Source: Klebsiella phage KP182
Sequence record: OM337876.1
Strand: one strand, 5' to 3'
DNA: 64,000 nt
Positions within the stretch are counted from its first letter, which is position 1. The number at the start of each line of letters is the position of its first letter. The notes under the pieces were generated by a model, which saw only the letters and a program-made list of their open reading frames with translations, was not told where the DNA came from and made no database searches. The translations under genes and the position numbers were made by a program. This document shows positions 2,745 to 37,642 of this stretch, in pieces.

Positions 2745-3047
2745 TTAATCTTCTATGATATCTGGGTCATGCCCAGCAGCAATAAGATTGGTTTTGAATG
2801 TTGGAATGTCATACTGCTTAACGTTATCCATAAAAATGACAGGATACCGAATAGCAAGCGATGGATAGCACCCGATGCGTTTAGCAAGTGACTCAATCAA
2901 CGGACGGTCATAAACTGGTTGACCGTCTACCTCATTGATTACGTTATAGAACTCATACGGAAGCTGCAGCTTATCGAGCAAGTCACGAACTGCTTTACAT
3001 CCAGGGCATCTCCAAACTTCTTCAGGGATGCCATAGATTTCTATCAT
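2745..3047 (-). CDS. nrdH: glutaredoxin/NrdH-like redoxin
   Basis: 100-aa ORF with a CPGC redox motif near the N-terminus. Its position between 55 and nrdG matches T4 nrdH. Confidence 0.7.
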   Translation of the reverse strand: MIEIYGIPEEVWRCPGCKAVRDLLDKLQLPYEFYNVINEVDGQPVYDRPLIESLAKRIGCYPSLAIRYPVIFMDNVKQYDIPTFKTNLIAAGHDPDIIED

Positions 3048-3256
3048 TTCATGACCTGTTGGAGTTTAGCAGTCAGAGTGTTAACTCGTTTCTGAAATTC
3101 TTCATTAGATAACTTTTCATCTTTCTTGGTAGGATTAATCCAATCTGCGATGATAATAAGTACAATGAACGGAATTGCTACGAAAGCACCTGCCGTTAAT
3201 GCAACCAAAGCGATAACGTTAGAAATAAATTTACGAATAGCATTAATAAATTTCAT
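3044..3256 (-). CDS. small membrane protein
   Basis: 70-aa ORF with a long hydrophobic stretch (ALVALTAGAFVAIPFIVLIIIA). Confidence 0.45.
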   Translation of the reverse strand: MKFINAIRKFISNVIALVALTAGAFVAIPFIVLIIIADWINPTKKDEKLSNEEFQKRVNTLTAKLQQVMK

Positions 3257-3373
3257 AATTTTCCTTAAATAGTAAAGATGAACGCTGTCATAGCCAGAAA
3301 TTCCGGTCCAAACAGTTCAGTAGCCATGTGGTTCAGGGTAAACATAATTTTGTAAGTCAGCATATCTATTTCC

Positions 3374-32055: not shown

Positions 32056-32131
32056 TGGTACCCCCACCAGGACTCGAACCCGGACTACCGACCTTAGAAC
32101 GATCGTGTGCTATCCATTACACTATAAGGGC
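32056..32131 (-). tRNA. tRNA-Arg (anticodon UCU)
   Basis: Cloverleaf with a perfect D arm, T arm GGTTCGAGTCC, anticodon loop GTTCTAA and an encoded CCA. The acceptor stem needs three G-U pairs. Confidence 0.6.
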
Positions 32132-33395: not shown

Positions 33396-33472
33396 TGGTG
33401 ACCCTGGCAAAGACTCGAACATGCAACCAATCCCTTATGAGGGGAACGCTCTACCAATTGAGCTACAGGGCC
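33396..33472 (-). tRNA. tRNA-Met/Ile2 (anticodon CAU)
   Basis: GGCCCTG/CAGGGTC acceptor, perfect D arm GCTCAATTGGTAGAGC, anticodon loop CTCATAA and CCA. The T stem has one extra or mismatched nucleotide. Confidence 0.65.
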
Positions 33473-34587: not shown

Positions 34588-34731
34588 TGGACGGTATGCC
34601 CGGTCTCGAACCGAGTCACATTGACTTTGCAGAATCCATGTGTTTAATATATCACCCATACTCGATAGCATATCTGAACGAGACTGCAATCCCGCTACTC
34701 AGCTTACACCATCTTGTATTGTGTCATACCG
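34588..34731 (-). ncRNA. 144-nt tRNA-like stable RNA (candidate T4 species-1/rnaC-like)
   Basis: A 7-bp acceptor pairing CGGTATG...CATACCG-T-CCA (encoded CCA) spans 144 nt. It has a T arm CTCGGTTCGAGACCGGG, a D-like arm ACAC..GTGT and an internal 6-bp TTGCAG/CTGCAA stem enclosing about 55 nt. Confidence 0.45.
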
Positions 34732-34737
34732 TTAATT

Positions 34738-35056: not shown

Positions 35057-35122
35057 ATGGAAAGCTAATCATCTAATTGTTGATGTACCACTGCTATGGG
35101 CAGCGTTTAACTTTCATAAATT

Positions 35123-35207: not shown

Positions 35208-35303
35208 ATTAATTGGTGAAGGAAGTGCCATATAGACACAATTCGCTTAGCGACAGCCACAGCATTTTGCGGGCCGTGTATTTTTCCACCATTCCTTCAT
35301 TGT

Positions 35304-35379: not shown

Positions 35380-35475
35380 ATCAATATTCACTCCATCCAT
35401 CATGAGGACTTCATACGAAATTAAGAGAAGAATGATCAGTTCAACCCCTGTAGACGCGTTGAATGAATATTAATT

Positions 35476-35551: not shown

Positions 35552-36220
35552 TTATTTATTTACTAATTTTCTTCCTTTATACCATCCTTCTGGTATAGGG
35601 GAATCTTTTGAAATCTTTTTAGCTTCTATTCCATTATTAATCCACATTGTGCCAAATTGTGAATTTTTTGAACCGGATTGAGCTAGTTTCAGTTTATCAG
35701 AAATTTTTCGTTTAGTTTCAGAAGAGTGTGTTTTACCTAAAAACGGATTTCCATTTTTAGCTATATTAGCTTTAACTGCGTCTGCAATGCGAGAACGTGC
35801 ATCTGGTGTAATTCCAGATTTAACCTTATCCGAAAAATTCAGTTTAAATTTAGAATCATTTCTAATTTTATTACTGGTTGAATTTCCTCCAAGTATTCCT
35901 CTTGCTTTCATTTTTGACGGAGTCCAATATGTTGAGTTAACATAGTCAAATCCACCTTCACCACCAAGTTTTAAATTATATACGTTTCCTAATAAAAATT
36001 CTGGTGTAACTATTTCAGATTCCTTTAAATACATCTCCTCAGATGATTCACAATAATGAATAACTTCCTTGGTAAAGTTCTCAATTCCGTATTTTAGAAT
36101 TGCCTTTTTAATTAATACACCTGAACCCATGTAGCCATCATTGATGTCATCAGTTTTATGGGCTCCAACATAATATTTGCCATTTACATTATTGGTTATT
36201 TTATAAATCAAATAGTACAT
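35552..36220 (-). CDS. segB-like: GIY-YIG homing endonuclease (SegB-like, within tRNA cluster)
   Basis: 222-aa ORF with an N-terminal YLIYKITNNVNGKYYVGAHKT GIY-YIG motif. A seg-family endonuclease sits in the same place in the T4 tRNA cluster. Confidence 0.75.
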   Translation of the reverse strand: MYYLIYKITNNVNGKYYVGAHKTDDINDGYMGSGVLIKKAILKYGIENFTKEVIHYCESSEEMYLKESEIVTPEFLLGNVYNLKLGGEGGFDYVNSTYWTPSKMKARGILGGNSTSNKIRNDSKFKLNFSDKVKSGITPDARSRIADAVKANIAKNGNPFLGKTHSSETKRKISDKLKLAQSGSKNSQFGTMWINNGIEAKKISKDSPIPEGWYKGRKLVNK

Positions 36221-36284
36221 AAATTATTCTCCATACCAACTACGTGATAATTATATCACATGGTACGGATAAAGTAAACAAAAG

Positions 36285-36357
36285 AGGCGGAGGCAGGACT
36301 CGAACCTGCGCGTGTCGGGATATGAGCCCAACATTCTACCAACTGAAGTTACTCCGC
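36285..36357 (-). tRNA. tRNA-Met (anticodon CAU), second copy
   Basis: Anticodon stem TTGGG/CCCGA with loop CTCATAT and T arm GCAGGTTCGAGTCCTGC. The acceptor/D pairing is imperfect and no CCA is encoded. Confidence 0.55.
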
Positions 36358-36366
36358 ATTTATCCG

Positions 36367-36506
36367 GGTTCTTGAAGTACTAACAAGTAGCTTGATGTAG
36401 AACACGCTAAAGATATAATCTTCCGAATATAGAGCTTATCCCGTGGGAACAAACAGCTTCGTCCTCGGCATTATCTTATAGGACTCAAACTCATCTTCAA
36501 GAACTG
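36367..36506. ncRNA. structured element closed by 10-bp long-range inverted repeat
   Basis: GTTCTTGAAG (36367-36376) pairs with CTTCAAGAAC (36497-36506) about 120 nt apart. There is no ORF and no tRNA fold. The element lies between tRNA-Met and tRNA-Asp. Confidence 0.35.
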
Positions 36507-36519
36507 CCACGTTCTTATT

Positions 36520-36596
36520 TGGCGGACCTAGCGAGGATCGAACTCGCGCTCTCTCCCGTGACAGGGGAGTATTTTATCCAACTAAACTATAGGTCC
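36520..36596 (-). tRNA. tRNA-Asp (anticodon GUC)
   Basis: GGACCTA/TAGGTCC acceptor, anticodon stem CTCCC/GGGAG with loop CTGTCAC, T arm GCGAGTTCGATCCTCGC and CCA. Confidence 0.85.
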
Positions 36597-36601
36597 ATAA
36601 T

Positions 36602-36718
36602 TCGCTTTCAGAGATACTCTGGCACGATGCCGAAGCAAAGGGGAACAGGACTCTCATCACCTTGGTACCAGATGAATCTTGTTTAGCACTCTGTTCTAAG
36701 ATGTATCCCTGAAAGCGA
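36602..36718. ncRNA. structured element closed by 11-bp long-range inverted repeat
   Basis: TTCGCTTTCAG (36602-36612) pairs with CTGAAAGCGAA (36708-36718) about 95 nt apart. The region is non-coding and lies between tRNA-Asp and tRNA-Asn. Confidence 0.35.
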
Positions 36719-36827
36719 ACTTTCAACGCCGTAAGAAATTATAAGTACGTAGTTATCGTTGAGGGAACTCGTAAACAGGGAATTCTATGCCGACGATTTA
36801 TCAGAACGTCTTCTGACTTCTATATTT

Positions 36828-36911
36828 GGCGGGCCGTGCAGGTATCGAACCTGCCTAGTCATTTCTGACACGGATTAACAGTCCGTCGCTTACCCTCTCA
36901 GCCAACGACCC
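36828..36911 (-). tRNA. tRNA-Asn (anticodon GUU) with class-II-like long variable arm
   Basis: Anticodon stem ACGGA/TCCGT with loop CTGTTAA, a 15-nt variable hairpin GTCAGAAATGACTAG, T arm GCAGGTTCGATACCTGC and CCA. A possible G at -1 is present. Confidence 0.6.
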
Positions 36912-36917
36912 CGAATT

Positions 36918-36995
36918 TGGTAGAACGTGAGGGATTTGAACCCATCGACATCTCGATTAAAAGTCGAGTGCTCTAACCAGATGAGCTAACGTTCT
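36918..36995 (-). tRNA. tRNA-Lys (anticodon UUU)
   Basis: AGAACGT/ACGTTCT acceptor, perfect D arm GCTCATCTGGTTAGAGC, anticodon stem CTCGA/TCGAG with loop CTTTTAA and CCA. The T stem is weak. The 5-prime 10 nt overlap the homing-endonuclease stop. Confidence 0.7.
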
Positions 36996-37465
36996 ATATA
37001 ACTATTTATAAATCTTCGTGCTTGGGTATGCGTAACATTTATGGCTTTAGCATATCTGTTAAGAGCTCCCCATTTTGTCATGTCCATTGAATTATATACT
37101 TCAATTCGTGAAGCAACTTCAGTGTCTGTCAGTTTTGAAGCGCTATTTTCTGAAATCTTTTTACGAGATTCTTCAGTATGATGTTTTCCTTTAAAATTAT
37201 CACACTTGCCGCCATAAGGTTTTACTCCATTTTTAACAGCATCTCGTACATTATCAGCATTTGTAGCACAAAATACATTTGTTGGAGAATAAGGACCTTT
37301 GTCACCTATTCTGCACATGCAGTATTCATGACCTTTACGTCCACGCTCAGATAATTTTCCGGTAGATTTCCACCATTCAATCCAAGTATCATACGTAAAT
37401 TCCCAAGGAATTCCACGATACAATGCATTATATCTTTGTTGTTCGTATTTAATTTTCATAAACAC
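36986..37465 (-). CDS. free-standing homing endonuclease-like protein (paralog of 31545..32036)
   Basis: 159-aa ORF sharing WEFTYDTWIEWWK, EYCMCR.GD.GPYS, GKHHTEESRKKIS (NUMOD3) and VTHTQARRFIN blocks with its paralog. It is flanked by tRNA-Lys and tRNA-Tyr. Confidence 0.55.
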   Translation of the reverse strand: MFMKIKYEQQRYNALYRGIPWEFTYDTWIEWWKSTGKLSERGRKGHEYCMCRIGDKGPYSPTNVFCATNADNVRDAVKNGVKPYGGKCDNFKGKHHTEESRKKISENSASKLTDTEVASRIEVYNSMDMTKWGALNRYAKAINVTHTQARRFINSYIER

Positions 37466-37560: not shown

Positions 37561-37642
37561 AATGGATATTTTTATTTATACTGCCCTGAAATTAATCAGA
37601 GCAGTTGATAGATTAATAATAACAAAGAAAACCTAAAGCATA

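Follow-up and report, generated by a model that had tools for sequence, protein, structure and literature searches.

Two putative families of structured RNA and a relative of T4 rnaD in the tRNA island of a T4-like Klebsiella phage

RNA C and RNA D of bacteriophage T4 have been known since the 1970s. In the T4 annotation they lie on the tRNA strand of the phage tRNA cluster, where rnaD (species 2, 119 nt) and then rnaC (species 1, 139 nt) follow directly after tRNA-Arg. Their roles were given as unknown in a 2010 review (PMC3014915), a 2022 omics study, in which Northern blots detected both as late RNAs, described them as 'of yet unknown functions' (PMC9697503), and a 2025 paper still called their function unknown (PMC12685909). 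The present analysis concerns positions 36358-36827 of a 64,000-nt stretch of Klebsiella phage KP182 (OM337876.1; the whole stretch is referred to below as the window), a 470-nt part of its tRNA island that contains two intervals bounded by inverted repeats, here named element 1 and element 2. We consider it probable that these are two distinct, conserved structured non-coding RNA (ncRNA) genes, read from the minus strand within a polycistronic tRNA unit and released as stable RNAs resembling T4 species 1 and 2. Judged from the nucleotide sequence, they would represent new, unannotated families of the 'species 1/2' kind, and the locus would comprise three RNA genes, namely a rnaD homologue and the two new families, as part of a larger stem-closed set.

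By its sequence, the source phage is a KpV477/JD18-like member of the genus Jiaodavirus (subfamily Tevenvirinae, T4-like); the 470-nt region shares 99.6% identity with Klebsiella phage vB_KpnM_KpV477 and 88-97% with many JD18-like phages. ARAGORN identified 15 tRNA genes between positions 32056 and 37560, all on the minus strand, of which 14 are also supported by Rfam. In the order of the minus-strand RNA, the part of the island considered here reads tRNA-Lys, tRNA-Asn, the rnaD-like RNA, element 2, tRNA-Asp, element 1 and tRNA-Met(CAU) (Table 1), both elements sharing the strand of the tRNA genes that directly flank them. The original prediction, made from the letters of the window, had missed that the RNA strand is the minus strand, that its short palindrome belongs to a third RNA related by profile comparison to T4 rnaD, that T4 rnaC and rnaD offer a precedent, and that other inter-tRNA gaps of the island are built alike. 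The third RNA resembles T4 rnaD in its strand, in its site directly after a tRNA of the cluster, in its 5' hairpin and in a series of common sequence blocks, and differs from it in what comes next, which is element 2 in the window and rnaC in T4. Neither of the two elements is itself rnaD. With T4 rnaC they have in common the appearance of a ~140-nt RNA in a tRNA cluster, on the tRNA strand and with paired termini, and element 1 even has a near-equal length (140 nt between the repeat ends, compared with 139 nt); however, no sequence or model similarity links rnaC to either element. In particular, rnaC resembles a tRNA in its 7-bp acceptor stem and its GGUUCGA-type T arm (the 3' CCA is present in the window and MY02 copies only), whereas the covariation-supported structures of elements 1 and 2 contain no T arm and no CCA.

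Table 1. Features of the tRNA island discussed in the text (positions in the window).
Feature	Positions	Strand	Remarks
Element 1	36359-36519	minus	Full gap from tRNA-Asp to tRNA-Met; structured RNA ~36359-36513 (~150 nt)
Element 1, P1 5' arm	36495-36504	minus	RNA GUUCUUGAAG, pairs with 36368-36377 CUUCAAGAAC; repeat of the original prediction
Element 1, P1 3' arm	36368-36377	minus	Followed by tail CCGGA (36363-36367)
Element 1, leader GGCA	36505-36508	minus	Pseudoknot with loop UGCC 36467-36470 of the side hairpin
Element 1, side hairpin P2a	36461-36484	minus	Stem 36480-36484 with 36461-36465; loop AUAAGAUAAUGCCG
Element 2	36597-36721	minus	Four helices, ~120-125 nt; flanked by the rnaD homologue and tRNA-Asp
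Element 2, closing helix 5' arm	36703-36719	minus	Pairs with 36601-36617; core is the 11-mer of the original prediction
Element 2, closing helix 3' arm	36601-36617	minus	Complementarity and covariation
T4 rnaD (species 2 RNA) homologue, by profile	36722-36826	minus	105 nt, directly 3' of tRNA-Asn; chain of profile matches
T4 rnaC (species 1 RNA) homologue, by profile	~34588-34735	minus	Directly after tRNA-Pro
tRNA-Asn(GUU)	36827-36911	minus	Directly 5' of the rnaD homologue; ARAGORN and Rfam
tRNA-Asp(GUC)	36520-36596	minus	Between element 2 and element 1; ARAGORN; Rfam tRNA 65.5 bits
tRNA-Met(CAU)	36284-36358	minus	Directly 3' of element 1; ARAGORN and Rfam
Seg-like homing-endonuclease ORF	35552-36220	minus	GIY-YIG SegE-type and/or NUMOD3; inserted between tRNA genes
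Seg-like homing-endonuclease ORF	36986-37465	minus	GIY-YIG SegE-type and/or NUMOD3; inserted between tRNA genes
Late-promoter consensus TATAAATA	37003-37010	minus	Exact, 8 nt upstream of tRNA-Lys
Late-promoter consensus TATAAATA	37573-37580	minus	Exact, 13 nt upstream of tRNA-Tyr

The inverted repeats by which the two elements had been recognized are present in the sequence. That of element 1 (GTTCTTGAAG at 36368-36377 and CTTCAAGAAC at 36495-36504) is perfect over 10 of 10 positions, with 117 nt between the arms, and that of element 2 (TTCGCTTTCAG at 36601-36611 and CTGAAAGCGAA at 36709-36719) is a perfect 11-mer, which extends to 17 nt with 94% complementarity (36601-36617 with 36703-36719). 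The coordinates first assigned to the repeats and the palindrome were 1-4 nt off, and the palindrome TCAGAACGTCTTCTGA, also real, is 16 nt long and occupies 36801-36816 rather than 36804-36820. The GGACTC fragments were found at 36481 and 36648, and both intervals are indeed free of tRNA genes (no ARAGORN or Rfam tRNA call in either stretch) and of open reading frames (ORFs), since they contain only trivial TTG/GTG-start ORFs of at most 55 amino acids, none of them credible. Taken alone, the repeats are weak evidence, because 10-mers of this kind are not rare in shuffled sequence: the window has 14 perfect 10-mer inverted repeats with 60-160 nt spacing, compared with 9.9 ± 5.1 in shuffles, and the 11-mer of element 2 is the sole one in the window, compared with 2.9 ± 2.4. 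Stronger evidence comes from the fact that each repeat spans exactly one inter-tRNA gap, together with the folding of the minus strand and the covariation of the stems across phages.

Element 1 was analyzed with an alignment (A1) of 19 distinct homologues from eight genera. Its covariance model (R2) matches the window at 36359-36513 with 181.8 bits. The closing helix P1, of 10 bp, is 99.5% paired in the 19 sequences, with compensatory changes in six of the ten pairs and arm variants that include GUUCUUGAAG/CUUCAAGAAC, GUUCAGAGAG/CUCUCUGAAC, GUCCAGAGAG/CUCUCUGGAC and GUCUAAAGAG/CUCUUUAGAC; in the tail CCGGA that follows it, CGGA and the first C are invariant in the same alignment. The pseudoknot formed by the leader is paired in all 19 sequences (100%), and in EcS1 and PM2 both partners of a G-C pair have been replaced to give A-U. 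The side hairpin P2a consists of 5 bp, four of them with a compensatory change, and its loop AUAAGAUAAUGCCG, the conserved form of which is given as AUAAGUAAAUGCCG, includes the GGACTC fragment (GAGUCC in the RNA). The hairpin closed by a third helix varies in length between ~5 and 60 nt. Over the whole structure, pairing holds in 97.6% of the cells and compensatory change affects 15 pairs; the covariation score of 0.365 compares with 0.166 in shuffled alignments, none of 500 of which reached it, and partners slid out of register gave at most 0.081. In addition, ~50 columns, many of them unpaired, are invariant across the eight genera.

Homologues of element 1 were detected by blastn in 206 phage records. 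The loci fetched for comparison represent eight enterobacterial T4-like genera (Jiaoda-, Karam-, Moon-, Winkler-, Kagamiyama-, Kanagawa-, Mosuguk- and Marfavirus). The homologues are always located on the tRNA strand and, in all fetched phages but PEi20, directly 5' of the same tRNA-Met(CAU). The covariance model from A1 found one copy per genome, and copies that had not contributed to model building scored 74-126 bits. No match to the model was found in the T4 tRNA region, and a core 21-mer of the element had no match in 185,579 bacterial and archaeal genomes, which thus provide no evidence for a host origin of element 1.

Among the 136 phage records that match element 2, nearly all of them from Klebsiella phages, 131 show an identity of at least 99%, and direct blastn retrieved nothing outside Jiaodavirus. 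Diverged relatives were reached only by synteny and with a Karamvirus query: Karamvirus genomes carry diverged copies at the syntenic site (tRNA-Asn, rnaD-like, element 2, tRNA-Asp), and copies are also present in Marfa-, Mosuguk-, Kagamiyama- and Winklervirus, that is, in at least five genera beyond Jiaodavirus in all. The model built from the alignment of 14 sequences (model R1, alignment A3) has a single match in the window, at 36597-36721 (73.2 bits, E 1.9e-13), and the tRNA regions fetched from T4, Moon, CF1, X20, PEi20 and CIP9 gave no match to it. RNAalifold folds A3 into four helices with 45 pairs, 28 of them with compensatory change; 95.8% of the positions are paired, and the covariation score is 0.44 versus 0.168 in shuffles (0 of 500 as high) and at most 0.10 for slid partners. 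The closing helix P1 covaries from UUCGCUUUC/GAAAGCGAA in the window to UUCAUUUUC/GAAAAUGAA in the metagenomic locus L029, UUUACUUUC/GAAAGUAAA in the Karamvirus VPA32 and UUAUCUUUC/GAAAGAUAA in CC31. Helix P2 of the window-type element is misaligned by MAFFT against the Karamvirus type, and was recognized in the window by inspection as GAACAG/CUGUUC. Scans of IMG/VR and metagenomes contributed few loci, the useful one being L029 (metagenome contig ERZ1026850 NODE-20, 2897-3280, plus strand), where a Karamvirus-type and then a window-type element 2 are followed by element 1 and tRNA-Met, and where the window-type copy differs from that of the window by compensatory changes (UUCGCUUUC/GAAAGCGAA to UUCAUUUUC/GAAAAUGAA, and GGCA/UGCC to UGCA/UGCA).

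Across the T4-like relatives, therefore, the folding and covariation analysis advised in the original prediction found the stems kept and compensatory changes in both elements. Of the proposal that they are additional structured stable RNAs, it is the structural half that is upheld, by conservation and by the many compensatory helix changes; stability and accumulation are predictions.

The same data identify the strand. As minus-strand RNA, element 2 folds with -47.4 kcal/mol (z -5.65 versus shuffles; plus strand -41.8) and element 1 with -37.1 kcal/mol (z -2.44; plus strand -28.5). G-U pairs are frequent in element 2, as in the pair of columns 2 and 142, which is G-U in 14 of 14 sequences, and since such pairs would be A-C on the opposite strand, they fix the RNA strand as minus. 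The tolerance of G-U pairs and the better minus-strand fold indicate selection on one RNA strand and not on duplex DNA, and so speak against the reading that the inverted repeats act as DNA, whether as recognition sites or insertion scars of homing endonucleases, as recombination hot spots or as cruciforms. Two Seg-like genes have in fact been inserted in the island, the island is a mosaic, and short direct GAAAG repeats flank element 2 and could be read as a target-site duplication. However, the internal hairpins and the pseudoknot covary as well, and the upstream GAAAG covaries with the stem with which it can pair, as expected of RNA pairing and not of a duplication scar. Moreover, both Seg-like genes are absent from these sites in JD18, where the flanking tRNAs are adjacent, and yet its copies of elements 1 and 2 are 98% and 100% identical to those of the window. 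A DNA-level role is accordingly extremely improbable, and the suggestion that the intervals are remnants of homing-endonuclease targets finds no support in the JD18 comparison.

Equally poor is the standing of a second early suggestion, that the elements are decayed tRNA genes, with stems that were once acceptor stems. They do lie in a tRNA array, like tRNAs (RF00005) they have paired 5' and 3' ends and are proposed to be released by the same nucleases, and GAGUCC resembles half of a T arm; in PM2 the equivalent of this region of element 1 even forms a T-arm-like hairpin (GGAG-UUCGAAU-CUCC), and a genuine likeness to tRNA is seen in T4 rnaC and in its homologue in the window (acceptor stem, T arm and, in the latter, CCA). 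On the other hand, no tRNA-model match was obtained at E≤10 in 36359-36519 or 36597-36826, ARAGORN made no call there, and the conserved helices (a closing stem of 10-16 bp, a pseudoknot, four helices in element 2) do not form a cloverleaf. The T-arm-like hairpin is not kept, for example in Moon and CC31, and the GGACTC/GAGUCC fragment, interpreted earlier as a T-arm remnant, turned out to form one side of a hairpin that covaries in element 1, and to adjoin helix P2 in element 2. Pseudogenes, besides, would not be expected to keep compensatory changes or near-identity over more than 130 phage records, and we regard a tRNA origin by decay as extremely improbable.

The Rfam search advised at the outset gave no real match over either element, at the gathering thresholds or at E≤10, where only MIR173 appeared, with 24 bits against a 70-bit threshold, as a chance match. 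Rfam likewise returned nothing over T4 rnaC and rnaD, even at E≤1, and holds no family for them, so that a missing Rfam match is uninformative on RNAs of the T4 type. Known ribozymes, riboswitches and Y-RNA-like RNAs were rejected as candidates for lack of an Rfam match; the matches to the Y-RNA-like YrlA (RF02553) in related loci fall on real tRNAs and far below threshold, and no Ro/Rsr gene was seen beside the elements, though none was looked for. Retron msr-msd RNAs are structured RNAs of ~100-150 nt with terminal inverted repeats of ~10 nt (a1/a2). The elements resemble them in size and in their a1/a2-like terminal closure, but a retron was discarded, as the neighbouring genes are tRNAs and Seg-like GIY-YIG/NUMOD3 ORFs, with no reverse-transcriptase gene. 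It is also conceivable that one or both elements are a new catalytic or ligand-sensing RNA, for example a self-cleaving ribozyme that assists in cutting the precursor of the tRNAs, or a riboswitch-like sensor placed before an initiator-like tRNA. The compact multi-helix folds, the many invariant unpaired nucleotides and the pseudoknot-type tertiary pairing of element 1 would suit such a function, as would the mutually exclusive pairings at the 5' end of element 2 (see below) and the nearly constant position of element 1 directly 5' of the same tRNA-Met. Yet no ribozyme or riboswitch family of Rfam matches even at E≤10, and host tRNA nucleases would already account for a release of the RNAs, which makes this reading very unlikely.

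The assignment of the third RNA relies on a chain of profile matches. A T4-type rnaD profile, from which the window was left out, has its best match in the 64-kb window at 36818-36748 on the minus strand (E 0.062); the window-type profile matches the Moon, CF1 and UViG (UViG14) copies (E 1.7e-6 to 9e-5), and a Moon-type profile built without T4 matches the annotated T4 rnaD (L001, 2662-2550) with E 4.7e-8. The sequence at 36826-36722 and the RNAs of T4, Moon, CF1, CIP9, PM2 and MY02 have in common a 5' hairpin with a GACG-type loop, (A/G)UCGUCGG, UUCCCUG, (G)UCCCUCA..GAAAC/GAUAAC and a 3' ACGGCG that pairs back to CGUCG. In the window this hairpin, UCAGAA-GACG-UUCUGA (36801-36816), is the palindrome noted at the beginning. 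The RNA begins 1 nt past the CCA of tRNA-Asn, as T4 rnaD begins 1-2 nt past tRNA-Arg. On these grounds it is, by comparative sequence evidence, a homologue of T4 rnaD, transitively through the intermediates, the direct similarity to T4 being weak. It is the least conserved of the three modules (70% identity to JD18, with indels), and its consensus structure recovered the closing stem only, for which reason no covariance model was obtained for rnaD. PM2 (L025) has two rnaD-like copies, one ahead of element 2 and one ahead of element 1.

At the junction with element 2 (36705-36727, minus strand), the rnaD-like end UGAAAG can pair with the 5' strand CUUUCA of the element 2 closing helix, giving a UUCG-tetraloop hairpin in the window. 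An equivalent hairpin of -6.5 to -10.5 kcal/mol, exclusive with P1, is present in nine of ten lineages and its sequence changes along with the stem. It may act as a folding or processing switch.

A separate homologue of T4 rnaC was also located in the window. A profile of the T4, Karamvirus and MY02 copies matches at 34631-34586 (E 5.9e-4), and the predicted fold combines an acceptor-type stem of 7 bp without mismatches (CGGUAUG/CAUACCG) with the T arm CUCGG-UUCGAGA-CCGGG and a 3' U-CCA; in the copies of T4 and Karamvirus, that stem is interrupted by two U-U mismatches. The Karamvirus homologues, retrieved by blastn with T4 rnaD plus rnaC, are situated between tRNA-Trp and tRNA-Gly, at a locus distinct from those of elements 1 and 2, which these genomes possess as well, and rnaC coexists with both elements in Karamvirus and MY02. 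The rnaC profile does not match element 2, and its only result near the elements is a non-significant one (E 2.1, 36363-36294) that covers mostly tRNA-Met sequence. The identification of element 1 with rnaC, as the lengths of 140 and 139 nt might suggest, was ruled out by the separate rnaC homologues in Karamvirus and in the window.

Three further inter-tRNA gaps have end-to-end closing stems, at 35057-35122 (Ile-Ser, fold z -4.2), 35208-35303 (Ser-His, z -3.1) and 35380-35475 (His-Gln, z -2.1). The last of these spacers is a conserved family, the closing stem of which covaries in Karam-, Winkler-, Kagamiyama- and Mosugukvirus. In the Gln-His gap of Karamvirus (L003, 935-1043, minus strand; also L006 and L023), an element of ~110 nt closed by AGAGUG...CACUCU is found ahead of the conserved Gln-His spacer, the RNA order being Gln and then His.

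The main rival to the preferred reading takes the elements for cis-acting structured spacers, which would insulate the tRNAs from misfolding and expose short single-stranded AU-rich linkers for cutting by RNase E and RNase P, while the pieces cut out would themselves be without function. Every non-tRNA, non-ORF gap examined has an end-to-end closing stem, which suggests that such stems have a generic architectural role; between the elements and their neighbouring tRNAs there are short AU-rich linkers, with CCA-AAUA at the 5' border and AUAAA or AUUAU at the 3' border; a junction hairpin that competes with the closing stem of element 2 fits a role in folding or processing; and the presence of the elements in tRNA regions is patchy, with T4, Moon and CF1 lacking element 2 and T4 lacking element 1. 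A spacer of this type, however, needs structure and not sequence, whereas element 2 is nearly invariant among its matching records while, between the window and JD18, tRNA-Asp is at 81% and the rnaD-like RNA at 70% identity, and element 1 keeps its invariant columns, many of them unpaired, across eight genera. Furthermore, neighbouring tRNAs in the island are mostly only a few nucleotides apart (e.g. 2-6 nt), which implies that the tRNAs do not need such spacers. We therefore judge a purely cis role unlikely. The near-identity of element 2 and the ~50 invariant positions of element 1 point instead to a partner in trans, protein or RNA, rather than to a mere spacer.

On the preferred reading, that of two released ncRNAs, the elements would be co-transcribed with the tRNAs. 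The 3' end of each element would arise when RNase P cuts the downstream tRNA at its 5' end, and the 5' end when the AU-rich linker behind the upstream CCA (CCA-AAUA...) is processed by RNase E or 3' trimming; the end-to-end closing helix, that is, the inverted repeat, would then shield both termini and allow accumulation as small stable RNAs. Neither element appears to have a convincing promoter or terminator of its own. No sigma-70-like site occurs on the minus strand inside either of them; a plus-strand promoter-like match in element 1 (36392-36419) is weak and at background frequency, and a minus-strand terminator-like match (36454-36434), with three G-C pairs and a poor T tail, lies over P3 and the variable hairpin and is also at background frequency. 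The T4 late-promoter consensus upstream of tRNA-Lys is a candidate promoter for the unit from tRNA-Lys through tRNA-Met, albeit as a consensus match only, the window having 10 matches to TATAAATA with 6.3 expected; such matches fit the description of T4 RNA C and RNA D as late RNAs (PMC9697503).

Several points weigh against this reading. In a comparison of sequences, a conserved structured spacer that acts purely in cis would look no different. Because the aligned sequences are related, their independence is overstated by the shuffle statistics, and the slid controls and pair counts are the safer figures. The interior of element 1 admits two pairings that are inseparable (GAUG/CAUC versus AUGAGU/ACUUGU plus UGU/ACA). 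The processing enzymes are taken from general E. coli and T4 tRNA maturation, in part as described for T4 in the 1970s-80s. Finally, nothing usable was found in the literature on the processing of T4 species 1 and 2 and on Jiaodavirus transcriptomes.

The tRNA-Met that follows element 1 looks initiator-like from its sequence: by inspection, it has GGG/CCC at the bottom of the anticodon stem (three G-C pairs), a U1xC72 mismatch and no encoded CCA. A second tRNA(CAU) is present at 33396-33472. The module-by-module comparison of 36284-36911 with JD18 (L002), Metamorpho (L027) and VPA32 (L003) gave element-specific identities; in addition to the values for JD18 already cited, element 1 is 96% and element 2 63% identical in the Karamvirus VPA32. 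The island is thus a mosaic of modules, which suggests frequent recombination between them. None of the fetched records carries an RNA annotation for these elements, and in many GenBank records hypothetical-protein coding sequences (CDSs) extend across them (PP723048, PQ537376, CPT_Marfa_147 at L031 775-1008, and Biddle_MM4 at L032); these CDSs are likely mis-annotations.

The related phages thus carry, beside rnaC and rnaD, further independent, conserved and covariation-supported RNA families of the same kind. Their defined helices, pseudoknot, invariant loops and gene order (the rnaD-like RNA and then element 2; element 1 and then the initiator-like tRNA-Met) offer comparative leverage and concrete mutational targets, the mis-annotated hypothetical-protein CDSs are flagged, and seed alignments for new RNA families are supplied. 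Phage tRNA clusters are now tied to escape from host defences that cleave tRNAs, and conserved RNAs inside such clusters are therefore plausible counter-defence candidates. In a wider and quite unlikely interpretation, the tRNA islands of enterobacterial T4-like phages would be a toolkit of at least seven recombining structured RNAs (rnaC, rnaD, elements 1 and 2, and the three other stem-closed spacers), in which elements 1 and 2 are trans-acting effectors and not by-products. They could serve, for example, as decoys or sponges for tRNA-targeting defence nucleases or for tRNA-modifying or tRNA-processing enzymes; alternatively, element 2 and the junction hairpin could form a co-transcriptional processing switch or a self-processing RNA class. 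If true, this interpretation would provide a functional handle on the 50-year-old question of the T4 species 1 and 2 RNAs.

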